Sequence record: OR352954
Length of the DNA: 64,000 bases
Direction: 5' to 3' (one strand)
From: Escherichia phage AV124
The notes below the pieces were generated by a model. That model did no database searches, was not told the DNA's origin, and worked only from the letters and a program-made list of their open reading frames with translations. The translations under genes were made by a program, and so were the position numbers. Shown here one piece after another: positions 1 through 29,141 of this stretch (position 1 is its first letter; every line of letters starts with the position of its first letter).

Positions 1-473
1 CCTTCTCATATGACCCTGAGACAGGTTTGTTTACTTGTATCAATCCTCTCGCTCGTCGTCATTTTGGTAAGGTTGCAGGCACAAAAAGGAAAGATGGGTA
101 TATACGCCTCGGTGTTAAGGTAAGCGGCAAGCTGAAAATGTTTCTCGCGCATAGGGTTGCCTGGGCTTTTTATCACGGTGTGTGGCCTGATGGCCTTATT
201 GACCATAAAGACTGGGACAGACAAAATAATAAAATAGACAATCTCAGGGTTGTTGACAAAAGCACAAATAATTATTATTATTCCCCTTGGAAAGGGAAGT
301 CACAGACAGGTTACAGGGGTGTTAGGATAGATAAAAGGAGAAATCCTCCCAGATATCAAGCTATTTTCTGCGACACTCATCTTGGGATGTTCTCTACAGC
401 AGAAGAGGCATATGCTTGCTATCAAAAGTATGTTATGAAGACACAGGAGATTATCGCAGATGCTGAAATATAA
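1..473 (+). CDS. HNH homing endonuclease with AP2-like C-terminal motif; 5' partial (start lies upstream of window)
   Basis: Reading frame open from window edge; 'HRVAWAFYHG...DHKDWDRQNNKIDNLR' HNH-type motif, 'GYRGV' AP2-like motif. Confidence 0.55.
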   Translation, partial: FSYDPETGLFTCINPLARRHFGKVAGTKRKDGYIRLGVKVSGKLKMFLAHRVAWAFYHGVWPDGLIDHKDWDRQNNKIDNLRVVDKSTNNYYYSPWKGKSQTGYRGVRIDKRRNPPRYQAIFCDTHLGMFSTAEEAYACYQKYVMKTQEIIADAEI

Positions 474-951
474 AGTTGGTGATTTGATTAAAGCTATTCA
501 AGATGGTGAAGTAAATGTTTTTGGTCATGGTTGTAATTGCTTTGTGACTATGGGTAGCGGGATCGCCCCGTTGATCAAAGAAGCATTCCCTAAGATGTAC
601 GCTGCCGACCTGAAAACTGAGAAGGGCGACAAGACCAAGCTGGGAACCTGTACAATGGCCTTTTTGAATGATGGGTCTCTCGTAGGATTTAATCTGTACT
701 CACAGTACGGTTATAATCGCCGCAAACAGGGTCTCAGGGACCTTGACTACAATGCCCTGTATGATTCAATGGTTGAAATGAAAAAGCTCTTACAGAGCTA
801 TACAGACGGCCCTATGGACACCTATCGAATCGGGTTCCCTAAACTAGGTGCTGGGCTTGCAGGGGGTGACTGGAATGTCATCGAAGCAATGATCAAATCA
901 ATCTTCTTTGATTGTGATGTAACTGTGTACATTCTGCCGGAGAAAAAGTGA
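460..951 (+). CDS. macro-domain (ADP-ribose binding/processing) protein
   Basis: 'GDLIKAIQDGEVNVFGHGCNCFVTMGSGIA' and 'IGFPKLGAGLAGG' resemble macro-domain Gly-rich loops (cf. YmdB/MacroD). Confidence 0.55.
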   Translation: MLKYKVGDLIKAIQDGEVNVFGHGCNCFVTMGSGIAPLIKEAFPKMYAADLKTEKGDKTKLGTCTMAFLNDGSLVGFNLYSQYGYNRRKQGLRDLDYNALYDSMVEMKKLLQSYTDGPMDTYRIGFPKLGAGLAGGDWNVIEAMIKSIFFDCDVTVYILPEKK

Positions 952-1120
952 TGACAGAAAAGAAAAACCTACACCCTGATACTGCATATGATCGTATTGT
1001 TGCGGCAATTCGTGCAATCGACCCGAAATTGGTAGACGCCCTTGACAGAAAGGATGCCCTCAACGATATTAATGATGCTTGCTATGAAGTTTTATGGCAA
1101 GATTGGATGGGGGATGATGA

Positions 1121-1330
1121 ATGATTGAACTTAAAGACGGCATGGTGGCCCACACCAAGAAGATCGACCTTCACGTTGGTAACACAGTGTTTACATACAA
1201 TGCACCACGAGGAAAGAGCTTTGTTGTTCTTCTACTTGGCGTAGAGAAGCCGGATGGTCAAGGAGAAGGTATTCAGATTGACGAATGGCTGAATAGTCGT
1301 GGCTGGAAGCTGGAGGGTCCTGATGAGTAA
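1121..1330 (+). CDS. hypothetical protein
   Basis: ORF track; start overlaps upstream gene. Confidence 0.3.
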   Translation: MIELKDGMVAHTKKIDLHVGNTVFTYNAPRGKSFVVLLLGVEKPDGQGEGIQIDEWLNSRGWKLEGPDE

Positions 1331-1541
1331 ATCGGTTTTTGTCATCTATGACACTGTTGACAAATGCCTCTGGAACCACAAAGCCAAGATTGGGTGGATT
1401 AGTTCCGGCGCGGCGAAGAACGCCTGGAATCTTGCCCACGCAACCTGGAGTGGGAAGCAGTATTTTGATGACCAGCAAAGATATGTAGTTCTTGAGCTTT
1501 CTGGCGGACACGTTAGTAAATTATTTGAGGAGAATAAATGA
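1323..1541 (+). CDS. hypothetical protein
   Basis: ORF with ATG at 1323 overlapping upstream stop (ATGAGTAA); translationally coupled small early gene. Confidence 0.3.
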   Translation: MSKSVFVIYDTVDKCLWNHKAKIGWISSGAAKNAWNLAHATWSGKQYFDDQQRYVVLELSGGHVSKLFEENK

Positions 1542-1894
1542 CCATGAATGAATCTGTAGATTCTGCAACCACCCCAATGATCGGTGGTAAGATTTACGCT
1601 GGCGTTATCATCAACGCCCGTCCGTTTGTGGAGGTATGGCCCCGTTGTATTTGTGGTTATCTGGCTGGCAAGGATCATCACAACCGAGGGTTTGATAATG
1701 GCCCTATTCGTACCTCCACGGTGCAAAGCCTGCTGCTGGAGAATGGTAAGCTATTCGCCATCACACTGAATAGCGCTTATCGCCTAGAATCTGTAGATCT
1801 GGCAGCTTTTCTTAATTGTCCTGGGTGGTTCGATGACCTTGATAATTTGATCACTCAGGCTGTAGCTCCTAAAAAGGGGGTGTCCATTGACTAA
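1538..1894 (+). CDS. hypothetical protein
   Basis: ORF track, 118 aa, start overlaps upstream stop. Confidence 0.4.
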   Translation: MTMNESVDSATTPMIGGKIYAGVIINARPFVEVWPRCICGYLAGKDHHNRGFDNGPIRTSTVQSLLLENGKLFAITLNSAYRLESVDLAAFLNCPGWFDDLDNLITQAVAPKKGVSID

Positions 1895-3739: not shown

Positions 3740-4270
3740 TTGAAATTGAAAAATATGATTTTGGCAACCGCCTGTATCCTTTCTCTGACTACCACACCTG
3801 TCTTAGCCAAAGAAAGTGTAAAGAAGCCCAAAGTTATCCATCTTTGTAAGAAGGATGACACAGCGGTAAACATTTTAGCCTGCAACATGTACAAAGAAGC
3901 TCGTGGAGAGAGTGATTCCGGGTTAATGTCGATCGCATTCGTAACTTTGAATCGTAAGGATAACGATAAGTACCCTGGAACAGTAAAGAAGATCGTCTAC
4001 CAGCCCGGACAATTCTCCTGGACATCTTCAGGAACAACGTTTAAAGTCTATGAAAAGGATCGCTGGGAGAAGGCACAAGAGTTTGCAAAAGTTCTGATCA
4101 AGATTCATAAACAAAACAGGGTCGTCTACGATGCTCTGGACATAACACATGGAGCAACCCACTACCATTCACGAAAAGTAAAACCCTACTGGACAAAGGC
4201 CATGCTACGCACAGTCAGGATCGATAACCATATCTATTATAAAGAGAAAGAAGATTCTCAGGGGGCATGA
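3740..4270 (+). CDS. secreted SleB-like cell wall hydrolase (signal peptide)
   Basis: N-terminal 'MKLKNMILATACILSLTTTPVLA' signal peptide; 'YKEARGESDSG...VTLNRKD...IVYQPGQFSW' resembles Hydrolase_2/SleB catalytic domain. Confidence 0.55.
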   Translation: MKLKNMILATACILSLTTTPVLAKESVKKPKVIHLCKKDDTAVNILACNMYKEARGESDSGLMSIAFVTLNRKDNDKYPGTVKKIVYQPGQFSWTSSGTTFKVYEKDRWEKAQEFAKVLIKIHKQNRVVYDALDITHGATHYHSRKVKPYWTKAMLRTVRIDNHIYYKEKEDSQGA

Positions 4271-4274
4271 ACTC

Positions 4275-4430
4275 ATGAAGAAATTCTTAGCAATATTTGT
4301 TTGCATTACCCCTTTGTGTGTGATATTGTCACTGTCACAGCCCATATATTGGGAACAAATTTGTGGAGCATACGCAATAGGTATGGCTACAGCGGCCTTT
4401 AGACTAAATACAAACAACTGCAAAAAGTAG
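4275..4430 (+). CDS. small membrane protein (51 aa)
   Basis: ATG 4275 overlapping hydrolase stop; hydrophobic N-terminus 'MKKFLAIFVCITPLCVILSL'. Confidence 0.3.
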   Translation: MKKFLAIFVCITPLCVILSLSQPIYWEQICGAYAIGMATAAFRLNTNNCKK

Positions 4431-4439
4431 GAGAAGTAG

Positions 4440-6431
4440 ATGATAATCGAGCGTAATGAGAAGAAGGTAGAAGTTAGTACCAACGTCAAACGCTATCAAG
4501 CTGGTATCGCGATCAATGCTGAAACTTTCAGTATCTTGATCGATGGTATTTATGAGGACAAGATCCTTGCTGCCTGTCGTGAACCCCTGTTCAATGCGGT
4601 AGATGCACACACAGAAGCCGGATGCCGGGACAAACCGATTATCATCCACTCCCCAACGGACTTGGAACCGTGGTATTCTGTCAAGGATGGTGGTATTGGG
4701 ATGGACTTTGACATGGTTACCCAGACCTTCATGATGCTGGGATCGTCCACTAAACGTGAATCCAACGATCTGATCGGTGCGAAAGGTATTGGTTCCAAGG
4801 CCCCGTTCACCGTTACGGACATGTTCAGTGTCATCTCTATCAAAGATGGTACTAAAACTGTGTACTCTGTTCATAAAGACCAAGGTATTCCTGAGGTTGT
4901 TCCTCTTCACGAGTCTAAAACCATAGAAGAAAATGGTGTTGAAATCAAATTCAACGTTGATCCGACAGAGACTGAGAAATACCGCCGTGCAATTATTAGT
5001 TGCCTGCGTTATGCTAAGTTCCCTTACGAGATCAATGACCCGTTTGTGACTTCATCTATTCGAGACCGTACCTACCCGGTGCAGTATACGTTCAAAGATG
5101 AAGAATCTGGTTGGATGCTGGAAATGTATTCGTCGGTATCTAACAACGCCGATAGCGTTGTGGTTATGGGACAACAGCCATACAAGTCAAAGTTTCTGAG
5201 CAATAACCCTGAATGGCCTTTAATGATGGTTTCCATTCCGATCGGGGATTGTGACGTAAACCCAGGACGTGAATGGACTATCGAGGGTAAGAATGACCGT
5301 GGATTCGAAGAGCGTCTTAAGGCATTTGTCCAGACTGCCCTTGATCGTCGTGGTGAAGAAATCTATCATGAACTCCGTAAGCTTTCAAATCTGGCTGATG
5401 TATTAGCTTATATGAAGCGGGTAGGTGGTTGGTTTGCCACTAAATATGGTGCAAAGTACATCGCAGAACTCTTCGCAGAGCACACTAACTCTTTGAATAT
5501 TAAAGAGTGCGTGACTTATAATGGTCATGGTGAAAAGCGGAGGATGGATAAGACATACTCTTACACAGACATGATGAACGGCTTCCACCTTGTCTACAAC
5601 GATATTAATAAACTTGTTCGTAGCCGTTGTAATCAGTTATTTGATGTAACAGGCAAGGCCGTCTATCTGACGGACAATCTTGGTGTGGCACAAATGTGTG
5701 ATAATCCATTCTTTGCGGGAATGGTCCATAAGCTGTCGGATTTGGAAAAGCGTCCAGCATCGAAATCGGATAAAAAGTATGGCGGATATAGCCTGTATGA
5801 ACCAGGGCATCCAGTATGGATCATTGAGCAGAGTGGAGCTATTAGGAAAACACGTATCTCCCGTGCGGAATTTGATGATATCAAATATGCCATGGTCTAT
5901 TCTGGTGGTCAGGCACGAGGGACTTGTGACCTTGGGTCTACGGCGTACCTTTCTAACCGTCATCAACCGGAGACCTTCTTGTCAGATCTTGGTATTGATG
6001 ATAAATTATACATCGTACCTTTAAACCGAGTGAGTTGGCTGGATGATGATGTTAGGATGATTACACAGGACGACCTTTATAAGGTTGCAAGTTCAAACCT
6101 GTTGGATTATCATCTTAGTCAGTTAACCAGACAGCGTGAGTATCGCTCTCTCTTGGACGACTTAAAGGGAATAGGTGTAGAGGTTGTCAAAGATCCTGAA
6201 TACAAGCAAAAGGTTAATATGGCTAACACTCTTTACAATATTAAAGGTTATTATAGTGCAGAAAGAACTGCGAAGAGAATCATCAATGGACGTATTCGTG
6301 TTGGGAAAAGTCTGATTAACAAGGTAAAAGAGCGTTACCCGTTGCTGAAACACGTCCCGATGCAACATTTTAACTCACCAGAGGTGGTTGAGTACCGTAA
6401 ATTTATTGATAGCAAAGGAGAAAATAAATGA
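4440..6431 (+). CDS. rIIA: rIIA-like protein (GHKL ATPase N-terminal domain)
   Basis: GHKL-type boxes 'FNAVDAH' and 'GIGMD...GAKGIGSKAPF'; 663 aa; immediately upstream of rIIB-like gene with ATGA overlap. Confidence 0.65.
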   Translation: MIIERNEKKVEVSTNVKRYQAGIAINAETFSILIDGIYEDKILAACREPLFNAVDAHTEAGCRDKPIIIHSPTDLEPWYSVKDGGIGMDFDMVTQTFMMLGSSTKRESNDLIGAKGIGSKAPFTVTDMFSVISIKDGTKTVYSVHKDQGIPEVVPLHESKTIEENGVEIKFNVDPTETEKYRRAIISCLRYAKFPYEINDPFVTSSIRDRTYPVQYTFKDEESGWMLEMYSSVSNNADSVVVMGQQPYKSKFLSNNPEWPLMMVSIPIGDCDVNPGREWTIEGKNDRGFEERLKAFVQTALDRRGEEIYHELRKLSNLADVLAYMKRVGGWFATKYGAKYIAELFAEHTNSLNIKECVTYNGHGEKRRMDKTYSYTDMMNGFHLVYNDINKLVRSRCNQLFDVTGKAVYLTDNLGVAQMCDNPFFAGMVHKLSDLEKRPASKSDKKYGGYSLYEPGHPVWIIEQSGAIRKTRISRAEFDDIKYAMVYSGGQARGTCDLGSTAYLSNRHQPETFLSDLGIDDKLYIVPLNRVSWLDDDVRMITQDDLYKVASSNLLDYHLSQLTRQREYRSLLDDLKGIGVEVVKDPEYKQKVNMANTLYNIKGYYSAERTAKRIINGRIRVGKSLINKVKERYPLLKHVPMQHFNSPEVVEYRKFIDSKGENK

Positions 6432-7663: not shown

Positions 7664-8970
7664 TGTCTGATTTTGGAGTGGGAACGGAAGAGGCCTTAGG
7701 TGCTATCATTGAAGGCAAAAACGTTTTCATTACGGGGCCGGGGGGCAGTGGCAAGAGCCATCTGATCAAAACAATCCAATCCCTGTATCCAAGTTCAACA
7801 TTAACAGTGGCCCCGACAGGGGTCGCTTCACTTAATGTTGATGGAATGACAACTCATCGAGCTTTCGGGTTATCAATGGGGATAGCCACAGAAGATGATG
7901 GTAAGACAGTAAAAACTAAACCTAAAAAACTTTTAAAAAGCAAATCTCTTGAGCGTATCATTATTGATGAAATATCTATGGTCCGAGCCGACAAATTGTG
8001 GGAAATGGATCAGAAACTGCGTGTTGCGAGAAGGGAGCCTAAGAAAGCTTTCGGCGGTCTTCAGGTCATCATGTTTGGTGATTTCTTTCAGAACCCTCCC
8101 GTTCTGACAGAGTCTGAAGAAAACGCTTACTTTGAACTCCACAGCACAGAATTATCTTGTTTCTCAGACACTTGGGGAGAGATAAGTCCATACCCTGTGC
8201 TTCTTGACAAGATTTATCGTCAAAACAGCGTGCATTTTTCATCGCTATTGAATCATATGAGGAAAGGCGAGCGTATTGATGAAATAGTTAAATTCCTCAA
8301 CAATCAGTGCTATTCAAAGGGTGCAGCACTGAATGCGATTACCCTAACTTCAACTAATGCCGCAGCGGAGCGTATCAACAAAAAGCATTACGATCAGATA
8401 CCGGGTGAAGAGGTTATTTACAAAGCCTCCAAAACAGGAGATTTTGCCCAGCGTCCAGTTGCTGAGAGTCTACACCTCAAGGTAGGGACTCGTGTCATGA
8501 TCACCGTTAATGATCAGAATCCAGATGAAGACGGTCCTAAATTTGTCAACGGAACGAGGGGTATTATCAAGGCTCTCGGAAAATTTTCGGTAGATGTTGA
8601 GCTGGAAAATGGTAAGATCGTAGAGATCGAAAAGAATGTGTGGGAGAATGTAGAATACTTCCCAAGAAAGGTTATCAAGAATGGTAAGACTGAAGAGGAA
8701 TTGGAAAAGATTGTTGTTGGAACATACACAAACTTGCCCATTCGCCTTGGTTATGCAGTGACCATTCACAAAGCTCAAGGCTTGACTTTGCCAGAGGTTA
8801 ATATAGACTTTGGTTATGGAGCTTTTGCTCCTGGGATGGCCTATGTTGCCTTTAGCAGGGCCACTTCTACAAAAGGTTTAAGATTGTTGCGTCCGGTTAA
8901 AGAACGTGATATTATCGTAGACCAAAGAATTGTTAAATTCTACAAAGACACATTCCCAGGAAAATTTTAG
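7663..8970 (+). CDS. SF1B DNA helicase, Dda/RecD-like
   Basis: Walker A 'GPGGSGKS', 'IIIDEISM', 'VTIHKAQG', 'AYVAFSRA' motifs in Dda/RecD order. Confidence 0.75.
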   Translation: MSDFGVGTEEALGAIIEGKNVFITGPGGSGKSHLIKTIQSLYPSSTLTVAPTGVASLNVDGMTTHRAFGLSMGIATEDDGKTVKTKPKKLLKSKSLERIIIDEISMVRADKLWEMDQKLRVARREPKKAFGGLQVIMFGDFFQNPPVLTESEENAYFELHSTELSCFSDTWGEISPYPVLLDKIYRQNSVHFSSLLNHMRKGERIDEIVKFLNNQCYSKGAALNAITLTSTNAAAERINKKHYDQIPGEEVIYKASKTGDFAQRPVAESLHLKVGTRVMITVNDQNPDEDGPKFVNGTRGIIKALGKFSVDVELENGKIVEIEKNVWENVEYFPRKVIKNGKTEEELEKIVVGTYTNLPIRLGYAVTIHKAQGLTLPEVNIDFGYGAFAPGMAYVAFSRATSTKGLRLLRPVKERDIIVDQRIVKFYKDTFPGKF

Positions 8971-10374: not shown

Positions 10375-10607
10375 TAAAAGATTGTTTTGGGAATGAGGCG
10401 AGAGTTGGCGACAAGATCGCCTTCTCTCAAGGCAATGCTGGAGCAAAAAAGTGGGAATTCGGGGAGATTACCCGGATAACCGATAAGTGCATATATTTTC
10501 ATGGTCGCGCCGGGGGAATGTTCCGTGACTGGCGTGATGATACCGAGCTTCGCCGTGGAGAAGGCGCGTTCGTAATTAATTTAGAAGCGAGAGGACTTAA
10601 TGAGTAA
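10371..10607 (+). CDS. hypothetical protein
   Basis: ORF track. Confidence 0.35.
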   Translation: MIKDCFGNEARVGDKIAFSQGNAGAKKWEFGEITRITDKCIYFHGRAGGMFRDWRDDTELRRGEGAFVINLEARGLNE

Positions 10608-10884
10608 AGCCGCACTTCCTGTAGAGATCGAATTCAGTTATGACCACCCTACTGCTGGTGTCGTCACCGTCGAAGCACTTTATTCTGTGATGGAAGGCGA
10701 CCGTAACAGTCGTGAAAGCGATGTAGATTACAACGGTTTCCAGGATCTGGAGTATTATGCTGTATTCTCTGGAGATAAACAGATCTACGTTGACATTCCA
10801 GATGATGTCCTATACCATCATTTACGCGAGTATATCCGCAATCTTGAAATTGTAGGTTGCTTCCAGGAAGAGGAGGATTTTTAA
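10600..10884 (+). CDS. hypothetical protein
   Basis: ORF track. Confidence 0.35.
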   Translation: MSKAALPVEIEFSYDHPTAGVVTVEALYSVMEGDRNSRESDVDYNGFQDLEYYAVFSGDKQIYVDIPDDVLYHHLREYIRNLEIVGCFQEEEDF

Positions 10885-11102: not shown

Positions 11103-11112
11103 GGGAGGCCGT

Positions 11113-13877: not shown

Positions 13878-13933
13878 TACCAACTGAGAGGTGGGCGACG
13901 GTACAGTCTAGCCCACTTTGAATAGGAGGAATC

Positions 13934-16306
13934 ATTAAAGGTCTGTTTATACTGGATAACGAGGCCGATGGCCTGTTAGACGAAGTAACTAAGTACCATT
14001 GTACTTTGCTGAAAGAATTCGGAGTCAACAACTGGAACCTGTTTTTAGACCCCGCACACCCTGAATATGAAAGCGCTGTAGCCTTTGCCAGGAGCAAGAA
14101 GGATGCTAATCTTACAATTCGTTCATACGACGAGCTGGAAAGCTTCCTGAAGACTTGTAGAGCCATTGCGTGTCACAACCTGTTTGGTTATGACCTGCGC
14201 CTGTGGAAGAAGTTATCGGGCATTGAATATGATATGTTCAAAGACCCGAAGTGCATGGGGACGATTGGGGATACACAGGTAAATCTCTACGACACCCTCT
14301 CTATGAGCCGTGTGCTTTATCCTGACCGTCCATTACCTAACGGTTGCCCTGACTCTGTTCTTAACCCGGTAACCGGGAAGCGAGACCGTGTAGGTCCTCA
14401 TGGCCTGTTGGCCTGGGGCTACCGCGTAGCAAACAAGAAAGTTCAGATCGATGACTGGCGTAACCAACCCTTGTGGGAATACGTTAATCGTGTCTGGGAA
14501 GACGTTTTAATCAACGAGTTAGTATGGCAATCCCTGATCGATGAATCTACAGGTGCTCGCTGGCCTGATGACAAGCAGTTCATGTACAAAGATAAACCGG
14601 AAGGGATGCGGCAGATCAACTGGAAGAACGCGCTACGCCGCCGTATGTTGACTGATTACCTGATGATTGAGCAAGAAATTCAGGGTGTTCCATTCAATAA
14701 GCATGAAGCTGAAAAGCTGAGAGACCGTATTGATGTAATGATGAAAGAGATTGAGGAAGAAGTAGAACCTCAACTCCCGCTCAAAGAGATGACGAAGTCT
14801 CAACAGCCAAAATTCCCTGCTAATCCTTTTGATGGTGCAGGAAGAATTTCCCATCACGGGTGGAATTGGTTAGAATACAAGCTGGGATATCCAGTTAATC
14901 GTGAAGCGCTGGAATTCAAAGGTCCACCGAAGACGGCGTTTAAAGGTAACGGTGATGTAAGTGCAGCAGGGGAAAGATACTGTATCCAGAATGGTGTTGA
15001 AGACCCGGCAGCGATGCCAGACTTCATTAGAAGCCAGATAAAGAAAGAGAATACCCTTGTCCCATTGCCACCAGACCTAATGGAAAAGGCAATTGCCGAT
15101 CTTCGTGCTGGAAAGATGCCAGACCTGATGGTTCCGATGAAGATCTCGAACCAGGACGACATCAAGAAGTACCTGATCCGCGATGCGGGATGGAAACCAA
15201 CGCTCTGGCGTGTTAAAGATGTGACGAAAGACCAGTTCAAAAAGACCCGCGATGATGCGGAGGTTGATGGTCTGGTGCGTAAGTACATCGAAGAACTTGG
15301 AGAGTCCGAGTATAAATCTCTGATTCTTGAGCACTTAAATAATAGTGACGCAAAGTTCAATATCTCGGAAAACAAGTTCGACCATCGTCATGGTTCTGAT
15401 CGTGTTTACGAGGAGGTCTTCAAGAAGTTCCGACGCAAAGCTCGTCAACTGCCGACTTCACCACAGTTGAAGGATAACTTTGGCAAGCTGTGTCCTAACC
15501 TTGAAGTTATCGATGTTCACTTGGCTAAACAGATTGTTAAGTGGCTGTCATTACGTAACCGTCGTTCTGTTCTCGACCCTATTGACGAGGATAAAAACGA
15601 TACAGGGCTGTTGAATCATCCTCGCCTGGCGATTGATGGAAAACTTCCAGCTCGTTTCTCTGGTATCACTAACACCGGGCGTTGTAAGCACACCATTTGT
15701 GCAAACATGCCTAAGCCAGATCCTAAGGTGTTGTTGGGTAAAGAGATGCGTGGTCTCTGGGGTGTGACCGATGAATATTACCAGGTCGGTATCGATGGTT
15801 CTAACCTCGAAGGTATGATCGCGGCATGGGGTGCATATCAGTTCGATGGTGGTGAATACCTCCGTATCATGGAAAGTGGAGATGCCCACGCACGAAACGC
15901 CGAGGCATACACCAAAGCTTCTGGTACTCTGGTAACGCGTAACGGTGGTAAAGGGGTAACCTACGGCATCATGTATGGTGCTCAGGCAGCTAAGATTGCA
16001 GCAATGCTTCACATTTCCCTTGACAAGGCACAGGCGGTAATCGATGCTTTCTGGGATAGTAACTTTGGTTTGAAAGGTCGTAAGGAATGGCTTGAAAACT
16101 TCTGGGAAGCAACGGGTAAACGTTATATCCCTGGTCTCGATGGTCGTAAGATTTGGACCCGTTCTAAGCACTCTCTTCTGAATGCTTTCCAGCAAAACGG
16201 TGGTGCATCTCTATTCGATCTGGTTGGTATCCTGCTTCACTGGGAACTGATCAAACGTGGCTGGTATGATGATGACGTTCGTCGCCTGATTTACTACCAT
16301 AAATAA
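13934..16306 (+). CDS. DNA polymerase, family A, T7 gene 5-like; N-terminal segment (3'-5' exo + motifs A and B), ends just before motif C
   Basis: Exo I 'FILDNEADGLLDEVTKYHC' (cf. T7 'IVSDIEANALLESVTKFHC'), 'GPHGLLAWGYR', motif A 'GIDGSNLEG', motif B 'KGVTYGIMYGAQ'; no ATG/GTG/TTG between upstream TGA (13919) and Exo I, so start set at ATT 13934 after AGGAGG. Confidence 0.75.
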   Translation: MKGLFILDNEADGLLDEVTKYHCTLLKEFGVNNWNLFLDPAHPEYESAVAFARSKKDANLTIRSYDELESFLKTCRAIACHNLFGYDLRLWKKLSGIEYDMFKDPKCMGTIGDTQVNLYDTLSMSRVLYPDRPLPNGCPDSVLNPVTGKRDRVGPHGLLAWGYRVANKKVQIDDWRNQPLWEYVNRVWEDVLINELVWQSLIDESTGARWPDDKQFMYKDKPEGMRQINWKNALRRRMLTDYLMIEQEIQGVPFNKHEAEKLRDRIDVMMKEIEEEVEPQLPLKEMTKSQQPKFPANPFDGAGRISHHGWNWLEYKLGYPVNREALEFKGPPKTAFKGNGDVSAAGERYCIQNGVEDPAAMPDFIRSQIKKENTLVPLPPDLMEKAIADLRAGKMPDLMVPMKISNQDDIKKYLIRDAGWKPTLWRVKDVTKDQFKKTRDDAEVDGLVRKYIEELGESEYKSLILEHLNNSDAKFNISENKFDHRHGSDRVYEEVFKKFRRKARQLPTSPQLKDNFGKLCPNLEVIDVHLAKQIVKWLSLRNRRSVLDPIDEDKNDTGLLNHPRLAIDGKLPARFSGITNTGRCKHTICANMPKPDPKVLLGKEMRGLWGVTDEYYQVGIDGSNLEGMIAAWGAYQFDGGEYLRIMESGDAHARNAEAYTKASGTLVTRNGGKGVTYGIMYGAQAAKIAAMLHISLDKAQAVIDAFWDSNFGLKGRKEWLENFWEATGKRYIPGLDGRKIWTRSKHSLLNAFQQNGGASLFDLVGILLHWELIKRGWYDDDVRRLIYYHK

Positions 16307-17275
16307 CATTGTGGCTTTGTGAGGTAACTCACATCGAATAACTCCTTTAATTGCTGGGAGGCTAAGGTTGATATTCACTCGATAATAGAGTAAAATACAA
16401 CTATGTTAATCAGCAGCGAAGAGGATCAATGAAAAGTGTAAACTACCACGGATATGTGGTTTACGAAGACGGAACCATTATCGGAAGGCGCGGGAAACCG
16501 ATGCAAAAGGTAGATAATGGGAGGGGCTACCTAATTGTAAGTCTCTACCTTAATAAAAGAACAACGACAAAAGCTGTGCATGTTTTAGTGGCTGAGTGTT
16601 TCGTTCCCAACCCGGATAACCTCCCAGAGGTTGACCACAAGGATGGTGATAAGACCAACAACCACTACACCAACCTCCGCTGGGTAACAAGAGGTAAGAA
16701 CATAGAACATTGCTACACGTTGGAAGGTAGAAGTGCAACAGGTATTGCCAATGCAAACAGTAAGTTGTCAGAGGGAGAAGTGGAGAAAATCTGCTACCTC
16801 TTGCAGGAAGGCTTTAGTCAAGCTGCCATCCGAGACATGGGCTACCCATACGGAACAGTTAGGGCCATCAAGCAGAGACGACAATGGCTGCATATATCAT
16901 CTTCGTATCATTGGTCTTAACGTTCAGAGGCCAGCCGAAAGGCGTAGACGAGCGAGTGCCGTCGAAATGGGGAGCATCCTGAAAAGGATGGTGATATGGT
17001 CCGATCCTACGTGAAAACGTATGGCAACACGTAATGGTGTGGGCGAGATTAACGACCTCGCTAAACTTTTGGATGAATACCAGCTCCAGGTTCCTAAGAA
17101 ATACCTGAAGAAGTGGGAGTTCGACACCCTGGAAGAGGCAACAGCTTTCGTCAAAGAATGGGAAGCAAAAGGCCGGGTATTTGACGGACATGAATGGAGA
17201 AAGGCCGTCAAAGATGACAACGGTGATAAAGTCAAGGATGCGGAAGGCAATACAGTCTACGAAGGTATTTTCGGG
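16301..17275 (+). mobile_element. insertion interrupting the DNA polymerase gene; candidate group I intron carrying an HNH endonuclease ORF (alternative: gene-splitting homing cassette)
   Basis: Polymerase frame stops at 16304-16306 where motif C is expected; conserved C-terminus resumes downstream; possible P1 pairing CCAU(16297-16300)/GUGG(16311-16314); in-frame G-terminated 3' site at 17275. Confidence 0.3.
16429..16920 (+). CDS. HNH homing endonuclease
   Basis: 'VHVLVAECFV...VDHKDGDKTNNHYTNLRWVTRGKN' HNH_3-type motif; C-terminal HTH-like segment. Confidence 0.75.
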   Translation: MKSVNYHGYVVYEDGTIIGRRGKPMQKVDNGRGYLIVSLYLNKRTTTKAVHVLVAECFVPNPDNLPEVDHKDGDKTNNHYTNLRWVTRGKNIEHCYTLEGRSATGIANANSKLSEGEVEKICYLLQEGFSQAAIRDMGYPYGTVRAIKQRRQWLHISSSYHWS

Positions 17276-17419
17276 GACGATGGTAAAATCCACATCCAGT
17301 ATTGCCCTGTTGGTGAAATGGTCGTAAGATGTGTAGAGAAGGCCGCTCGTATCATGGGCAGTCCTGTACATATCACAGGGGCATATCTTACGGGCGCCAA
17401 TTGGGCGCAATGTCATTGA
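17021..17419 (+). CDS. DNA polymerase C-terminal segment (motif C region to C-terminal His)
   Basis: 'IQYCPVGEMVVRCVEKAARIM...ANWAQCH*' matches T7 DNAP C-terminus '...IQVGC..EEIAQVV...NWAICH*'; first ~85 codons lack polymerase similarity. Confidence 0.6.
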   Translation: MATRNGVGEINDLAKLLDEYQLQVPKKYLKKWEFDTLEEATAFVKEWEAKGRVFDGHEWRKAVKDDNGDKVKDAEGNTVYEGIFGDDGKIHIQYCPVGEMVVRCVEKAARIMGSPVHITGAYLTGANWAQCH

Positions 17420-17437
17420 TATATAAGGATATTTTAT

Positions 17438-18073
17438 ATGGAATTATGGAAAGACATCCCCTCTACGGAGGGGAGATACCAAGTAAGTAATTATGGAAGA
17501 ATAAAAAGGCAACGGTATTCTCGCATAAACAGCAATCAAGCAGCAAGTTGGGAGCAAGTATATGAAACAAAGATATTAAAGCCTTCAAAGGACACACACG
17601 GTTACCTACAAGCTTGTTACCTTGTGGAAGGAGAGAGGACTATAGCCCTGGTCCATAGGCTTGTTGCAGAAGCCTTCCTTGCACCGCCAAGTCAAGAGTT
17701 GATAGATGAATGTATGAAGGCTGGTCACAAAGTGGTTCTTGTCAACCACAAGGATGGAAACCCACTTAACAACCATGTTGACAACCTTGAGTGGTGTACT
17801 CCTTCTTACAACAATGAGTATAGTCCCCAAGATTATTCAAATAGGTCTGGGGATAACTGTAAACATGCGGTTCTTAAAGAATCTGATGTTGACAAAATAC
17901 TGGAACTACGTGGTAAAATGAGTCAGCAGGCCATCGCGGATATGTTCGATGTGAAACAGATCACTATCAGCAACATTTTCACCGGAAGGTCTTGGTCTTC
18001 TTATACCGGAATACCTCGCAAAGAGCGTAACAAAGGAAAACGTGCAGCTAAGACCAAACTGTTATCACAATAG
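17438..18073 (+). CDS. HNH homing endonuclease (NUMOD4-like N-terminus)
   Basis: 'WKDIP..EGRYQVSNYGRIK' then 'VHRLVAEAFL...VNHKDGNPLNNHVDNLEW'. Confidence 0.7.
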   Translation: MELWKDIPSTEGRYQVSNYGRIKRQRYSRINSNQAASWEQVYETKILKPSKDTHGYLQACYLVEGERTIALVHRLVAEAFLAPPSQELIDECMKAGHKVVLVNHKDGNPLNNHVDNLEWCTPSYNNEYSPQDYSNRSGDNCKHAVLKESDVDKILELRGKMSQQAIADMFDVKQITISNIFTGRSWSSYTGIPRKERNKGKRAAKTKLLSQ

Positions 18074-18081
18074 GAGATACC

Positions 18082-18309
18082 ATGTTTCCGAACAAACCTA
18101 AAGAAGCCACCCATTATTTTATGTATCCAGGGCATCCTACTCCGGGTGGTAATTGGGCATACTATGTCAGCTTTTTCAGGAAAGTTGCAGGTGAGTGGAT
18201 GGTGTACACTACCGATACCGACAATGAGTACCCAGGCTGGACATTAGCTTCTCGACGCTATAAGAATAAAAGCTTAGAGACTATGATTGAATATTTGCAA
18301 GAAATTTAA
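18082..18309 (+). CDS. hypothetical protein
   Basis: ORF track, 75 aa. Confidence 0.35.
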   Translation: MFPNKPKEATHYFMYPGHPTPGGNWAYYVSFFRKVAGEWMVYTTDTDNEYPGWTLASRRYKNKSLETMIEYLQEI

Positions 18310-18318
18310 AAAATAGTG

Positions 18319-18347
18319 TTGACACCCGTTTCGAATAGCATTAAAGT
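18319..18347 (+). promoter_or_regulatory. sigma70-like promoter candidate
   Basis: TTGACA (18319-18324), 17-nt spacer, TAAAGT (18342-18347), A/T-rich upstream. Confidence 0.35.
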
Positions 18348-18405
18348 GTATCACATGAAGACGAGAGATCTCGCTTCAAAACAACCTCACAAACAGGAGA
18401 ACGAA

Positions 18406-20436
18406 ATGACCGCAAAATATGAAACCGTACCTTATGCTGACTTCGTAAAAGCTCTGAAAGCTCAGTTCGCTGTCATGCAAGCGCTGGGTGCGCTTTACAC
18501 GGTCGATGTACCGAAAGATGAACTGTACGACCTGTACCTTGATTCTTTCCCGGAAGGCACCAACCTGATGTATAAAGAGCGCCGTGAATACGACTGCAAC
18601 TGCTGCAAGAGCTACATCCGTACTCTGGGCCGCGTAGTTGCTATTCACAACGGCAAGCTGGTATCTATTTGGGACGTTAAAGTTGGTGGTTATTACCAAG
18701 TAGTTGCCGATGCGATGAAAGCGCGTGTTGAAAGCTCCGAGATCCGCGATCGCTTCTTCCACTTCGAAGGCCGCGTTGGTACTGAGAGCAACGTAGTTCT
18801 CCTGGAAAATGGGAAAACCAAAACCTGGACCCACTTCCATCAGGCCCTGCCTCGCGAACTGGTTAAACGTGGTGAAGATATCCCTTCTGCCCTGGGTGAG
18901 TACCGTGACAACGCAACTGTGCTGGCACGTTCTCTGAAAGATATCGATATGGACTCTGCCGAAACGGTAATGGACCTGATCAACCAAGGCTCTCTGTACC
19001 GTGGTGATGAGAAAAAGCACATTGTTGCTGCCTTTATTAAGGCGAAACGTGCATACGACAAAACGCCGGAAGACCAGCGAATGAACTTCTGCTGGAAACA
19101 AAGTGAAACGCTGGGTAGACTGGGTCGCTTCCGTAATGATGTCATCGGAACACTGATGAGCGATCTGGCAGAAGGTGTTGATCTTGAAGCCGCAGTGAAG
19201 TCCTTTGAAGACAAAGTCTCAGGGACCAACTACAAACGTACTACTGCTCTGGTAACTCCGGGCATGATCAAGGCAGCACAAGAGAAAGTTGAAGCCCTCG
19301 GCTTGACTGAATCTCTGGCACGTCGCTTTGCGGTGACCTCTGACCTGACGATCAACAACGTGTTGTTTGCTGACCGTTCTGCAAAGGCCCAAATGAACGT
19401 ATTCGAGCAACTGGCAGCGTCAACCAAAAACGCGCCTAAGTCACTGTCGAAAGTGGAAGAGATCAGCATTGAGGATTTCATCAACAACGTTCTACCGAAA
19501 GCGGACACTATCGAAGCGCTGGTTGAAGGTCGTCTGACACCGAACCTGATGAGCTTGGTTGCCCCGGCAAACGCAGGTGCTCCTAACCTGTTCAAATGGG
19601 ATAACGGCTTCTCCTGGTCGTATAATGGCGAAGTAACTGACTCCATCAAGGAGCGTGTGAAAGCCGCTGGCGGCAGCGTGACTGGTGACCTGCGTGTTTC
19701 GTTGTCTTGGTACAACAGTGATGACCTCGACCTGCACGTATTCGAGCCTGGTGGCGGTCAAATTTACTTCGGTAACAAACGTGGTCGCTCAACGGGTACG
19801 CTGGATGTGGATATGAATGCCTATGGCAAGTCAGACGCACACCATCCGGTTGAGAACGTTACGTGGGAAAATGAGCGTAATATCACGGAAGGTGTTTACA
19901 AGGTTGTTGTTAACAACTATAATAAGCGCATGACTGATCGCGTTGGCTTCGAAGTCCAGATGGAATACAAAGGCCAAGTGTTCAACTTCGCATACCCGCA
20001 AGCTTTGGGTAATAGCAAGAGCCAGACCGTTGTAACATTTAAGTATTCTCGTGCGAAAGGTGTTGAAATTGTAGACAGCATCGGGCATACTAAGCAATCT
20101 AAAGAAGTGTGGGGCGTCTCTACCGAGACCTTCCAGAAAGTTTCTCTGGTGCTAAATTCTCCTAACTTCTGGGATGGTCAGACCAAAGGTAACAAACACT
20201 ACTTCTTTATGCTGGAAGGTTGCATTAACCCTGACGATACTCGTGGCTTCTACAATGAGTATCTGCGTGACGAGCTGCATGAGCATCGTAAAGTGTTCGA
20301 AGTGTTGGGTTCCAAGCTCAAAGCTGAACACTCCGCTGATCAACTGAGCGGCCTGGGCTTCTCGTCTACCCAGCGTAATGAGTTGGTTGTGAAGGTGACT
20401 GGTTCTTTCAACCGCACCCTGAAGATTAAGTTCTAA
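18406..20436 (+). CDS. large hypothetical protein (676 aa), unknown family; E. coli-optimal codon usage
   Basis: ATG 18406 after AGGAGA SD; strong CTG/CGT/GGT/AAA codon bias unlike neighbouring phage genes; no P-loop or recognisable catalytic motif found. Confidence 0.6.
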   Translation: MTAKYETVPYADFVKALKAQFAVMQALGALYTVDVPKDELYDLYLDSFPEGTNLMYKERREYDCNCCKSYIRTLGRVVAIHNGKLVSIWDVKVGGYYQVVADAMKARVESSEIRDRFFHFEGRVGTESNVVLLENGKTKTWTHFHQALPRELVKRGEDIPSALGEYRDNATVLARSLKDIDMDSAETVMDLINQGSLYRGDEKKHIVAAFIKAKRAYDKTPEDQRMNFCWKQSETLGRLGRFRNDVIGTLMSDLAEGVDLEAAVKSFEDKVSGTNYKRTTALVTPGMIKAAQEKVEALGLTESLARRFAVTSDLTINNVLFADRSAKAQMNVFEQLAASTKNAPKSLSKVEEISIEDFINNVLPKADTIEALVEGRLTPNLMSLVAPANAGAPNLFKWDNGFSWSYNGEVTDSIKERVKAAGGSVTGDLRVSLSWYNSDDLDLHVFEPGGGQIYFGNKRGRSTGTLDVDMNAYGKSDAHHPVENVTWENERNITEGVYKVVVNNYNKRMTDRVGFEVQMEYKGQVFNFAYPQALGNSKSQTVVTFKYSRAKGVEIVDSIGHTKQSKEVWGVSTETFQKVSLVLNSPNFWDGQTKGNKHYFFMLEGCINPDDTRGFYNEYLRDELHEHRKVFEVLGSKLKAEHSADQLSGLGFSSTQRNELVVKVTGSFNRTLKIKF

Positions 20437-20442
20437 TTAAAC

Positions 20443-20458
20443 AGCCCCTTCGGGGGCT
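20443..20458 (+). terminator. stem-loop (AGCCCC-TTCG-GGGGCT) after 676-aa gene; weak U-tract
   Basis: Perfect 6-bp stem with TTCG tetraloop 7 nt after stop. Confidence 0.3.
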
Positions 20459-20486
20459 AATATTGAAATCATAGAGGAGATAAAAG

Positions 20487-20882
20487 ATGACCACTACTAA
20501 CCTGTTCGAAGTTGCCACCCGTAAAAAACTGCGTTTTGCAAGTCCGAAAGGTCTACTGACCACAGAAGATCTGTGGGATCTGCCGATGACTGGTAATACC
20601 AGCCTAGATACGGTTTCCAAACTGGCTAACCGTGATGTGAAAGCATCTGCTGAAGAAAGTTTCGTTGTCGAGGCCAGTGCTGTAAATGGCGAAGCAAACC
20701 TGAAGCTGGATATCCTGAAGTACATCATCTCGGTGCGTAAAGCGGAGATCGCGGATCGCCAGGCAGCGAAAGAGAAGGTTGAGCGTAAGCGTAAACTTCT
20801 GGACCTGCTGGCAGAGAAGGATAACGAGAAAGATGCAGCGATGACTCGTGAAGAAATCCTGAAAGAGCTGGAATCTCTGTAA
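20487..20882 (+). CDS. hypothetical protein (131 aa, C-terminal charged coiled-coil-like region)
   Basis: ORF track; GAGGAG SD upstream; same host-like codon usage as upstream gene. Confidence 0.5.
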   Translation: MTTTNLFEVATRKKLRFASPKGLLTTEDLWDLPMTGNTSLDTVSKLANRDVKASAEESFVVEASAVNGEANLKLDILKYIISVRKAEIADRQAAKEKVERKRKLLDLLAEKDNEKDAAMTREEILKELESL

Positions 20883-20892
20883 TCTGCCCGCC

Positions 20893-20913
20893 AAGGCCCT
20901 TCGGGGCCTTTTT
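20893..20913 (+). terminator. intrinsic terminator
   Basis: AAGGCCC-TTCG-GGGCCTT hairpin followed by TTTTT. Confidence 0.6.
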
Positions 20914-20927
20914 GCATTGGAGAAAAA

Positions 20928-21287
20928 ATGAAAGTAACTGGCAAACAAACTGTTGTACAGAACGTGGAAGTAGATATCTCTGATGAAGAGATCATGAATA
21001 TTGTCAAGGCACAAACACCAGACTACCTCGCAGATGTCCTCACCAAAGAACTGCTGAGGAACTTCATCTATAGCTTGCCAGCAGATTTTACTGGTGAGCG
21101 GGCCGTGTGGGAAACACGTAAAAGAGGATATGAACCGTTTCTTGTACTTGTCCATGTAGACGCTTGGTGGGACTACCACAACAATGTTGGTGTGGATGAA
21201 GAAGTCAGACCGCTCACCGAAGAAGAAACGGCAAAATATAATATGATTTGCGGTTTGCGGGACTACATTAAGCATCTGCAAAAATAA
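20928..21287 (+). CDS. hypothetical protein
   Basis: ORF track, 119 aa. Confidence 0.45.
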   Translation: MKVTGKQTVVQNVEVDISDEEIMNIVKAQTPDYLADVLTKELLRNFIYSLPADFTGERAVWETRKRGYEPFLVLVHVDAWWDYHNNVGVDEEVRPLTEEETAKYNMICGLRDYIKHLQK

Positions 21288-26883: not shown

Positions 26884-26892
26884 GGAGATAAA

Positions 26893-27114: not shown

Positions 27115-27170
27115 TTATTGACATAACGAGTGTAAAGGGGTAAGATACCCCTTCACTCATAAATGGAGGA

Positions 27171-27512
27171 TTGATGACTGAAGAAGTAACCCCTACCAAC
27201 GAAGCACGATTCCTTGGACTAGACCCCAATCAGTTCGGAACTGTGGTCTTCCTCTCAAGTGCCAGCGTTCAGATGGCTGACCATATCAATTCTGAACCCG
27301 TCAGAAAAGAAATGGAACGTTTAATCAGTGAAGGCAAACACGAAACTATCGAAACGGCGTTGGCCTGGGTTCGTGGTCAGCGTAATGCTGTGATGCAACT
27401 GAGCGGAGCTTCAACCTTCGCGCAAAACCTTTTGGCGCAAGTTGAAGATATGTTGGTTGATCAACTTCTTGCTGTACCAGTTACACAAGCCGTTGAAGAA
27501 AAATCTGAGTAA
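27171..27512 (+). CDS. hypothetical protein
   Basis: ORF track, 113 aa. Confidence 0.4.
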   Translation: MMTEEVTPTNEARFLGLDPNQFGTVVFLSSASVQMADHINSEPVRKEMERLISEGKHETIETALAWVRGQRNAVMQLSGASTFAQNLLAQVEDMLVDQLLAVPVTQAVEEKSE

Positions 27513-27525
27513 TAAAGGAGAGAAG

Positions 27526-28713
27526 ATGAGCGTAGTAAACGAATACAAAGACCCAATGTCCGGCAAAGTAAACCACTTCGCAAAAGGCAGCATCAAATTC
27601 ATCAGCATCAAACCCGTGAAGAATGCTGATCAAGATGGTATTAAGCGTACCCACATCCCTGCACGTAACGGTCAACCTGCTAAGGTGATTGAAGCCACCC
27701 ACACTATCAGCTTTTTAATGCAGGAAGTTGATGCGGATAATAACGTGGTAGACCCACAGAGCCAAGGCGATTGGATTGGTATGGGTGAGAAGAAACTTCA
27801 CGCCAGCCACACGGATAAGGTTCAGGTCAAGTTTGATTCCGGTTATAAAGATATTCTAGCTGGCATGGTTGTATCTTTCCCGCTGAAAGTCTCTAAGAAT
27901 GGGGATAAAACCTATATCAACGGCACTTTAAGCGGTAAGACATTCAACATTCTGGATGAAAGCAAAGCGGGCCAAGCTGCCCCTCGTCAACAGCAGTCTT
28001 CTGCCCAGGCAGCACAGTCGGGCGGTGGTGTTAAGATCTATGGTGAGATTACCGAAATCGTAGGTAATCTGGCGACTGTTAATGACGAGAAGAACGGCCC
28101 CGGCGGTGTAGTTCTTTCCGATGAACAACTGGCACAGGTATCTGTTGGTGGACGAATGACTGCCTTTGTGGATATGTCTAACGGTAACATCCTGAATGGA
28201 TTCAAAGCTTACGGCCCCGCAGGTCAGAACAACGGCGGTTCTGGTGGTAAAAAGAGTGGTGGGTACGACCAATTTGGTGTTGAAACAGGGCACGCCATTA
28301 ACGGTCTGAAAGAGTTGATGGGTGCTGGTTATAAAGTGAAGGATGAGCTGGAGACAGCTAAAGCCATTCACCGTGCCACATTGGATATGAAAGCGTTCGT
28401 TGCGGAGCGTACTGGTAAGCCAGTCGATTCTAACCCGGTTGGTGCAAGTGCAGGCAACGCAATTCTGGTTGCATGTAGCCGTTTCAATGCTAAGTCAGAT
28501 GTTTCTGAAGCAACGATTCTGAACGCAGCCAAAGATGTGTATACAAAGCTCTCTGAGCCGCTTTATACGTTCATTAGTGAAAGTGCCAAGGGTGCCGATC
28601 AAACTCCGTCACAGCCCGTCCAGGAGCGTTTAACGACACCTCCTGCCCAAGAGGCGCCCGCTATGGATTTTGATGAGCCACCGATGGACTGGGACGAAGA
28701 AATACCGTTTTGA
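27526..28713 (+). CDS. single-stranded DNA-binding protein-like, with E. coli SSB-type acidic C-terminal tip
   Basis: C-terminus 'EPPMDWDEEIPF*' (cf. E. coli SSB '...EPPMDFDDDIPF'); Gly/Gln-rich linker 'GPAGQNNGGSGGKKSGG'; ATG 27526. Confidence 0.55.
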   Translation: MSVVNEYKDPMSGKVNHFAKGSIKFISIKPVKNADQDGIKRTHIPARNGQPAKVIEATHTISFLMQEVDADNNVVDPQSQGDWIGMGEKKLHASHTDKVQVKFDSGYKDILAGMVVSFPLKVSKNGDKTYINGTLSGKTFNILDESKAGQAAPRQQQSSAQAAQSGGGVKIYGEITEIVGNLATVNDEKNGPGGVVLSDEQLAQVSVGGRMTAFVDMSNGNILNGFKAYGPAGQNNGGSGGKKSGGYDQFGVETGHAINGLKELMGAGYKVKDELETAKAIHRATLDMKAFVAERTGKPVDSNPVGASAGNAILVACSRFNAKSDVSEATILNAAKDVYTKLSEPLYTFISESAKGADQTPSQPVQERLTTPPAQEAPAMDFDEPPMDWDEEIPF

Positions 28714-29141
28714 TAATGAAAAGATGTTCTAATTGTGGGGCTGAAAAGCCCCTTGAACAATTTCAGATCAGGAGGGCTTCTAAGGATGGATATACCGCAT
28801 CGTGCAAGATTTGTCTTAAGGAACGCGACCGAATCAGGGACCAAGATCCTGAACGTAAAGCAATGAAAGAACGATACGTTAAAGGTATCGGAAGAGAAGC
28901 GGCAGCACGAGCAAAGCGGAAGTATATCGAGAAGAATCCGAAGAAGAGATCTGTGCATATAAAAACAGGTAATGCGATCCGTGACGGCAAGATATTTAAA
29001 CAGCCTTGTGAAGTTTGCGGAAGTGAAAATGTACAAGCTCATCATTGTGATTACGATAAACCTTTAGAGGTTATGTGGCTATGTCCTATTCATCATGAAG
29101 AGTGGCACAGGCAATACGGCGAGGCAAAGAACGCTATATAA
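28710..29141 (+). CDS. HNH endonuclease (Cys-rich, zinc-binding type)
   Basis: 'CSNCG...CKIC' and 'CEVCGSENVQAHHCDYDKPLEVMWLCPIHHEEWH'. Confidence 0.65.
   Translation: MIMKRCSNCGAEKPLEQFQIRRASKDGYTASCKICLKERDRIRDQDPERKAMKERYVKGIGREAAARAKRKYIEKNPKKRSVHIKTGNAIRDGKIFKQPCEVCGSENVQAHHCDYDKPLEVMWLCPIHHEEWHRQYGEAKNAI

Follow-up and report, generated by a model that had tools for sequence, protein, structure and literature searches.

Homing-endonuclease-like cassettes and a probable group I intron in the replication arm of Escherichia phage AV124

The region dealt with here belongs to Escherichia phage AV124 (sequence record OR352954), of which a stretch of 64,000 nucleotides (nt), hereafter the window, was analysed as a whole. 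By sequence comparison, the window is a KB57-like myovirus of the genus Mydovirus (Vequintavirinae), whose first ~29.1 kb read as the early/replication arm, on the + strand, followed by part of the structural arm on the − strand. About 30 Klebsiella, Proteus and Raoultella phages match it at 92-98% identity (megablast of positions 14000-21000), all of them from the genus Mydovirus within the Vequintavirinae (KB57, KpS8, Mydo and KNP2 among them), and the Salmonella and Cronobacter phages of the genus Seunavirus stand at ~80-86% in the same search. The original prediction for this DNA had placed four HNH endonuclease genes at junctions between gene modules, one of them inside a polymerase in two parts, and had proposed that such genes mark sites of mosaicism whose neighbours may be recently mobilised. 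Open reading frames (ORFs) are indeed present at all four places (HNH1 to HNH4, Table 1). In our reading, the four genes are very probably selfish homing-endonuclease cassettes, and one of them, HNH2, lies inside a group I intron of the DNA polymerase gene.

Table 1. Features of the window treated in the text, with their positions and strand
Feature	Position	Strand	Description
HNH1	1..473 (ORF 3-473)	+	Free-standing HNH_3 endonuclease gene, 5' end cut by the window edge
Empty site	7667..7669	+	690-nt HNH gene here in KP12 and K54_rec2, between rIIB and the helicase gene
Empty site	13931..13939	+	~510-nt HNH gene here in K54_rec2 and K54lambda1.1.1, in the gap that separates the primase/helicase and polymerase genes
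DNA polymerase (family A), exon 1	14006..16300	+	Pfam DNA_pol_A; ends ...YYH at U16300; 98.8% identical to KB57 10417-12841
Empty site of a second polymerase intron	15967..15968	+	~715 nt with its own HNH gene in relatives; motif B codons GVTYG/IMYG
Group I intron	16301..17071	+	771 nt, splitting the HDE motif of the polymerase between its codons for His and Asp
HNH2	16429..16920	+	I-HmuI-like HNH endonuclease ORF in the P6 loop of the polymerase intron
DNA polymerase, exon 2	17072..17419	+	DEYQ... through the stop codon
HNH3	17438..18073	+	Free-standing endonuclease gene: NUMOD4, HNH_3 and helix-turn-helix
HNH4	28716..29141	+	Free-standing gene of a predicted zinc-ribbon and beta-beta-alpha-metal (HNH/EndoVII-like) nuclease
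Hairpin and T-run	29149..29172	.	GGCTCCC AAAT GGGAGCC TTTTTT, common to the converging blocks; read from the sequence

The polymerase gene and its insert

KB57 lacks all four genes and was taken as an HNH-free reference, and the borders of the cassettes were set by blastn of the window against it. In this comparison, positions 16301-17071 form an insert whose place in KB57 is precisely between bases 12841 and 12842, within a polymerase gene of 880 amino acids (aa) that is intact there. The polymerase frame of the window stops at 16304-16306, two codons inside the insert. That stop ruled out an intein, which has to be translated through in frame. When 14006-16300 are joined in silico to 17072-17419, a single protein of 880 aa results, which aligns without gaps to the KB57 polymerase and is identical to it at 871 of the 880 residues. 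The exon junction then reads ...TACTACCAT/GATGAATAC... (...TACCAT/GATGAA..., the slash marking the border), and over the 30 nt at either side of it there is no difference from the uninterrupted sites in KB57 and K54lambda1.1.1. At the protein level the insertion point, ...IYYH/DEYQ, falls in motif C of family A polymerases, with its catalytic aspartate.

A local Rfam search over 2.5 kb gave a full-length match of the insert to the group I intron model RF00028 (Intron_gpI) at 16291-17023, with 39.3 bits and E=6e-8. Homologues found at the same site in other phages scored 69.8 (KP12, where the intron has no ORF), 56.7 (CR9), 48.7 (phiTE) and 42.9 bits (A5-4), the gathering threshold being 50. 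At the 5' border, the P1 wobble pair U16300·G16311 sits exactly at the limit defined by KB57 and is invariant in 7 of 7 sequences. At the 3' border, G17071 is the last base before homology to KB57 resumes at 17072, and a P10 of 4 base pairs can form between GAUG (17072-75) in the exon and CAUU (16307-10). Covariation was analysed in seven introns (window, Csp-D17, CR9, A5-4, FV3, KP12 and phiTE) with the ORF loop removed, the helices drawn including P1, P2, P3, P7 (pseudoknot), P7.1, P7.2, P8, P9, P9.1 and P9.2. For 49 pairs in 11 helices, 99.7% of the cells are paired and 20 of the 49 pairs show changes on both sides, a result matched by none of 500 shuffles; when the partners were slid by 1-3 columns as a control, there were 34-48% pairing and 0-2 compensatory pairs. 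The core helices of a group I intron from P1 to P9, including the P3/P7 pseudoknot, are backed by compensatory changes in these seven sequences. Moreover, three compensatory pairs fall in P9.2 (17042-17062), past the 3' end of the Rfam match, which indicates structured RNA, rather than a coding sequence, in the 48 nt that follow 17023.

Some observations count against an intron at this place. The score of the window copy is under the gathering threshold, lowered by the 492-nt ORF lodged in P6, and a default Rfam scan of the whole window gave no hit, which we take as a false negative in view of the local search. The helices were drawn by hand from the same sequences that were then counted, with their ORF loops cut, so that the percentage of paired cells is inflated. 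In addition, the Rfam alignment ends at G17023, 48 nt before the proposed 3' splice site, and an in-frame ATG lies at 17021, from which a separate C-terminal fragment of the polymerase might in principle be translated.

That the end of the Rfam match falls right at this ATG is also what can be put forward for genes in pieces, the polymerase in split parts of the original prediction, in which HNH2 would be free-standing and the ORFs 14006-16306 and 17021-17419 would be translated separately to assemble afterwards. Both pieces are open frames with a stop and a start codon of their own, the GenBank records of relatives list them as separate 'DNA polymerase' coding sequences (CDSs), and one HNH-containing insert of the Pectobacterium phage CB7 (CB7_245) failed to splice (PMC7344957). 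ATG 17021, however, has no Shine-Dalgarno sequence upstream, and covariation supports a group I intron fold for the entire insert, up to and including the 48 nt beyond 17023, which are found in every intron-bearing allele and in no intron-less one. The U·G pair and the terminal G lie exactly at the borders set by the intron-less allele, and the homologous introns of CB7, the two of its polymerase gene, do splice, as observed by reverse-transcription PCR (RT-PCR) and Sanger sequencing (PMC7344957). We regard separate translation of the two pieces as very improbable. A related arrangement is that of nrdA/mobE in Aeromonas phage Aeh1, where an HNH gene also lies between two ORFs of one essential enzyme, with the difference that the insert of the window is a structured group I intron and its second piece has no ribosome-binding site. 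Those intron features, together with the missing ribosome-binding site, argue that the split of the polymerase is only apparent. On this sequence evidence the gene is interrupted by an intron, rather than split, and should yield one protein of 880 aa; splicing in the window phage itself is what we infer from the homologous CB7 introns, the homologues for which it has been published.

CB7 (Certrevirus, Vequintavirinae) is the closest parallel in other respects, being a phage of the same subfamily with a downstream intron in the same gene and at the same insertion site. Outside the ORF, the intron RNA of CB7 and phiTE shows 90-94% identity to that of the window (90% for the flanks in CB7), but the loop holds another HNH ORF in both phages and only 27% of the 771 nt match. 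CB7 also has an extra free-standing HNH gene beside its polymerase gene, at one end of it, which is not spliced out (PMC7344957). A difference between both phages concerns an upstream intron, present in CB7, for which the window has an empty site at 15967.

This upstream site lies in motif B (Table 1). Inserts are found there in KP12, K54_rec2, K54lambda1.1.1 and SSE121, and the upstream intron scores 63.8 bits with RF00028 in SSE121 and 52.1 bits in phiTE. The window and KB57 read GGC/ATC at this point and the intron-bearing alleles GGT/ATC, so that the last exon base is C in the former and T in the latter. The T is in keeping with the U that a 5' splice site requires, and the C of the empty alleles may perhaps confer immunity on them.

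HNH2, the ORF within the polymerase intron, shows clear similarity to HNH endonucleases (Pfam HNH_3, E=4.1e-10 and 39.6 bits against a gathering threshold of 24.8; phrog_59, 8e-40; structure 1U3E, E=2.3e-9). Its Shine-Dalgarno sequence and its start codon, AGGA...AUG, are base-paired to the 3'-terminal part of the ORF in the P6 stem AGGAUCAAUG/CAUUGGUCUU (16416-16432 with 16907-16918), of which CR9 and A5-4 keep compensatory versions; the pairing suggests that translation of HNH2 could be held back by the folded intron. The same intron RNA has a different ORF in phiTE, CB7 and rV5/FV3, and no ORF in KP12 and VLCpiM5b. The ORF-less intron of KP12, of 343 nt (retrieved stretch ~19431-19773), is recorded in GenBank as two separate genes.

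Distribution and movement of the intron

The 771-nt intron is 100.0% identical in the Salmonella phages SSE121 and GEC_vB_MG, in the Klebsiella phage K45PH128C2 and in K54_rec1-6, and 98.8% identical in the Cronobacter phage Csp-D17. The exons of SSE121 are much less similar to those of the window, with 86% identity in the 100 nt upstream of the intron and 94, 87, 80 and 70% in successive bins downstream. An intron with 100% identity between genera cannot be ancestral when the exons around it are at 86%. Judging from these alignments, the intron did not carry neighbouring genes along and the exchanged tract is of tens of bases. The sharp break in identity that the original prediction expected at its borders is present, but the flanking genes do not look recently mobilised, as the intron travelled with tens of exon bases at most.

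In this line, a published laboratory co-culture experiment captured such a gain. The phages K54_rec1-6 are laboratory recombinants of K54lambda1.1.1 and all of them are reported to have gained three endonuclease genes (PMC12654880). By our sequence comparison, these are the HNH gene between rIIB and the helicase gene, a polymerase intron of the window type, and a gene of the HNH4 type, and the last two are present in all six recombinants. The parent K54lambda1.1.1 has an empty intron site, and the flanks of the recombinants are unchanged within 333 nt upstream and 348 nt downstream of it. With regard to the source, the gained sequences of the Mydovirus H recombinants were reported to include none common to the coevolving phage G (PMC12654880). 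The intron copy of phage G (K45PH128C2) is 100% identical to that of K54_rec2 (retrieved stretches 4001-4771 and 19613-20385, respectively), and phage G could, from this identity, be a possible donor of the intron by homing. As a side observation, the GenBank feature tables of OY978796.1 and OY979426.1 do not fit their sequences, with 'PhoH-like' and 'DprA-like' CDSs over the polymerase intron and tRNAs over replication genes; the annotation of both records appears to be shifted relative to the sequence.

A model for this kind of movement is found in the Bacillus phages SPO1 and SP82, whose HNH nicking endonucleases I-HmuI and I-HmuII (PDB 1U3E) are likewise products of group I introns, lodged in the DNA polymerase genes of these phages. 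HNH1, HNH2 and HNH3 all keep the motif HKD(G/W)(D/N)xxNNxxxNL, which corresponds to the HKDG(D/N)xxNN...NL motif of I-HmuI, and HNH3 shares its NUMOD4-HNH-HTH layout (HTH, helix-turn-helix). The Bacillus enzymes differ in that only the catalytic half aligns, overall identity is low, and both the phage family and the polymerase lineage are others.

In the proposed mechanism, the polymerase gene would be transcribed with its intron, which would self-splice at U16300/G17072 to restore the HDE motif and give one polymerase of 880 aa. HNH2 would be translated from the intron and, like I-HmuI, may nick or cut the intron-less polymerase alleles of co-infecting relatives near CAT/GAT, after which repair off the intron-bearing genome would copy the intron in, together with a few tens of exon bases. 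HNH1, HNH3 and HNH4 would spread likewise from their intergenic positions ('intron-less homing'), by cutting nearby sequence in genomes that lack them.

The free-standing genes

All four cassettes are sporadic among relatives that are 92-98% identical to the window, and precise empty sites are found in KB57, KP12, KpS8 and K54lambda1.1.1, which bears out the mobility proposed by the original prediction. The opposite pattern, with the four genes conserved at the same place in all relatives, was looked for and is clearly not what these genomes contain.

HNH1 starts ~40 nt outside the window, judged from the homologue in KP12, and its last 14 nt overlap the start of a macro/phosphatase gene (ATG 460). 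It has a Pfam HNH_3 hit (PF13392; E=5.7e-15, 55.1 bits against a gathering threshold of 24.8), as well as matches to phrog_99 (4.6e-41) and to the I-HmuI structure 1U3E (E=6.7e-7). Only the right border of this cassette lies inside the window: KB57, K54_rec2 and K54lambda1.1.1 align from base 466 onward, which makes HNH1 an extra gene of the window. A counterpart 69-77% identical occupies the same place in KP12, and there are partial matches to HNH genes of Seunavirus. The gene downstream of HNH1 is 86-89% identical to relatives, against the usual 94-98%. The stretch 466-1886 is unusually divergent from all relatives, with 86-89% identity at 466-929 and 1122-1538 and no possible alignment at 930-1121 and 1539-1885; for the macro/phosphatase gene, the Salmonella phage SSE121 (86%) is about as close to the window as the Klebsiella phages are.

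HNH3, just after the polymerase gene, also passes the Pfam HNH_3 threshold (E=1.4e-6, 28.3 bits against 24.8), with a NUMOD4 domain (E=6e-13), a weak helix-turn-helix and a match to 1U3E (E=4.3e-5). The cassette, at 17416-18069, stands in place of 30 nt of KB57, namely the hairpin of the terminator that follows its polymerase gene. Among related phages, 14 records contain HNH3 at this same place with 71-85% identity, and part of it has been deleted in Seu621 and VIK251; outside this locus, its GenBank matches are limited to two short ones to unrelated phages. The best matches of HNH1 and HNH3 reach only 69-84% identity, with 84% for the top GenBank match of HNH3, and neither of the two elements is far more similar to its counterparts than its flanks are. 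As for the flank of HNH3, identity to six aligned relatives is 83-94% over the final ~270 nt of the polymerase gene, the changes being mostly silent (4 aa changes in 115 codons), and no closer relative was found for this 3' end, with the Klebsiella group matching at 92-96%.

HNH4 most likely starts, by its sequence, at ATG 28716 and not at TTG 28710. The gene sits between TTTTGATAA and AAGAAAAGG, just ahead of the bidirectional terminator where the genes of both strands converge, and the terminator (29149-29172) is conserved in relatives with and without HNH4. By blastn, 28711-29139 stand in place of 59 nt of KB57. KP12 has a clean empty site, with TTTTGATAA directly followed by AAGAAAAGG, and in KpS8 (retrieved stretch ~2690-2735) no more than the final ~25 nt of this ORF are left before the common terminator.

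As to its nature, HNH4 departs from the other three genes, and the original description of four HNH genes holds for those that pass Pfam HNH_3, the fourth being a nuclease by PHROG profiles, residues and fold. Among the PHROG families it matches phrog_2340 ('endonuclease', 6e-43), phrog_1035 ('endonuclease VII', 5e-12) and phrog_2255 ('HNH', 4.5e-7). The family has invariant N-terminal CxxC...CxxC residues and a C-terminal CxxC...HH.DY...LC...H...H, in which the invariant positions are C98, C101, H109, H110, D112, Y113, C123, H127 and H131. The AlphaFold2 (AF2) model, with a predicted local distance difference test score (pLDDT) of 96.6, has strands at 107-110 and 119-122 and a helix at 124-134, that is, a beta-beta-alpha end. 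Foldseek gave 39 matches with E<=1e-3 among the viral models of BFVD, many of them named HNH or endonuclease VII, and the best-ranked of its weak PDB matches include the nucleases Cap5, T5 SciA and PacI. Of 107 database homologues, 105 carry no precomputed Pfam domain and the other two carry PF23250 and PF27269. Taking profiles, invariant residues, predicted fold and Foldseek together, the assignment of HNH4 as a putative nuclease of the HNH/EndoVII superfamily can be accepted.

The recent history of HNH4 resembles that of the intron. Its copies in NDO71, KNP2 and Iguana_ER37 match at 100%, 99% and 98% identity, respectively, and in NDO71 the 100%-identical HNH4 lies beside a segment, 200-460 nt upstream, with 54% identity to the window, the second sharp border foreseen by the original prediction. 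Positions 28251-28600, in the 3' part of the gene 27442-28713, exist in two allelic forms ~54% identical to each other: the form of the window is that of Iguana, KNP2, K54_rec2 and KP12, and the other form is that of KB57, KpS8 and NDO71. Since NDO71 combines the other allele with HNH4, and KP12 the window allele with its absence, HNH4 assorts independently of DNA located 100-460 nt away. The gene 27442-28713 had been labelled as a single-stranded DNA-binding protein (SSB), a label for which we found no basis, there being no Pfam hit and a match to PHROG 4477, of unknown function.

Other observations sit less well with HNH4 as a homing gene. No Pfam HNH model matches the protein and, among 52 homologues, only 3-4 show sub-threshold HNH/HNH_2 matches (E=0.06-0.4), what else appeared in the Pfam search being zinc-ribbon noise; comparison with the PDB, by single protein or by family profile, gave nothing useful, with a best Foldseek E of 0.2. 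The KpS8 remnant indicates that some of the differences in presence or absence are losses. In the K54 recombinants, moreover, HNH4 arrived in a long divergent tract beside a swapped tail-fibre gene, and its gain there could reflect hitch-hiking rather than homing.

This last case also counts in favour of a different explanation, in which some of the genes, and above all HNH4, are accessory or domesticated functions (a resolvase, a packaging helper or an anti-phage weapon) and their patchiness is ordinary gain and loss: the tail-fibre swap was the selected event, the region is mosaic in general, and HNH4 not only matches PHROGs and viral structures named 'endonuclease VII' but is annotated as 'endonuclease' or 'endonuclease VII' in relatives. 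Interference with co-infecting phages has been raised as a possible role in a PLoS Biology paper. HNH4 is missing, however, from many relatives that are otherwise 94-99% identical, so it is dispensable, and it occurs with both upstream allelic forms, in NDO71 on one side and in Iguana and KNP2 on the other. Its insertion is of the size of the ORF, and a clean empty site together with a decayed remnant make up the cycle of gain, decay and loss expected of a homing gene. An accessory role for some of these genes seems unlikely on balance, if less so than the polymerase in pieces.

Remnants such as that of HNH4 in KpS8, the partial HNH3 of Seu621 and VIK251 and the ORF-less introns of KP12 and VLCpiM5b would also be produced by loss alone, that is, by repeated deletion of ancestral genes without any recent transfer. 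This is the least probable of the explanations and is contradicted for the intron and HNH4, as it is at odds with the intron shared without change by genera with 86% identical exons, with the HNH4 of NDO71, unchanged beside a 54% identical segment, and with the gain of the intron in the laboratory (PMC12654880). Both the split polymerase and the loss-only explanations are poorly supported, and selfish homing cassettes are the reading kept here.

Genomic setting and significance

Over 31 kb, the blastn alignment of the window with KB57 is broken at roughly a dozen places, of which only three are HNH cassettes. Since most of these breaks have nothing to do with the HNH genes, mosaicism is general to the early region and not a mark of them, contrary to what had been proposed at the outset. 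Taken as a whole, the picture of mobile endonucleases at junctions is partly supported by the sequence comparisons. No further HNH_3-like ORF was found in the 64 kb (phmmer of the four proteins against all ORFs returned self-matches only), and a nuclease domain is absent from ten other ORFs of the 1-29 kb region that lie in poorly conserved stretches or close to them.

In the structural arm, two large inserts relative to KB57 at 30-64 kb were considered as endonucleases and ruled out, one being a tail-fibre/depolymerase pair and the other a collagen-like fibre. The first (44284-46273, − strand) holds two genes, of 411 aa and 250 aa, tail-fibre/depolymerase-like by sequence character and located between the genes that correspond to KB57_054 and KB57_055; around them, at 36.6-43.7 kb, most of the sequence likewise lacks homology to KB57, and the region is probably a host-range cassette. 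The second (57477-58616, − strand) encodes a protein of 379 aa with long collagen-like G-x-y repeats and adjoins the head-fibre gene.

Among other phages, the mob and seg genes of T4-like phages offer a similar picture of ORF-sized inserts between conserved genes, sporadic and with clean empty sites and marker divergence beside the insert, but the seg products are GIY-YIG enzymes and mobE, an HNH gene, is unrelated in sequence. The phenomenon is in itself ordinary and already described in Vequintavirinae, and the current understanding of it is unchanged by these results. It is conceivable, though we advance it only tentatively, that the intron is mid-way in a very recent sweep over Klebsiella Mydovirus and Salmonella/Cronobacter Seunavirus, and that HNH4 represents an uncharacterised family with a zinc ribbon and a beta-beta-alpha end, without a Pfam model, of free-standing homing genes.

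The useful correction is that the polymerase would be interrupted by an intron and not split, with the cross-genus identical intron and a nuclease family without Pfam model as side results. The window phage and dozens of GenBank relatives have this polymerase recorded as two or three genes plus an 'HNH endonuclease', and should instead carry one intron-containing gene. Moreover, these genomes provide a natural series around one essential gene, made of occupied sites, empty sites, an ORF-less intron and decayed remnants. Because one intron is shared without change across genera and was taken up in a laboratory experiment, this group of phages is a convenient system to measure homing and short conversion tracts.

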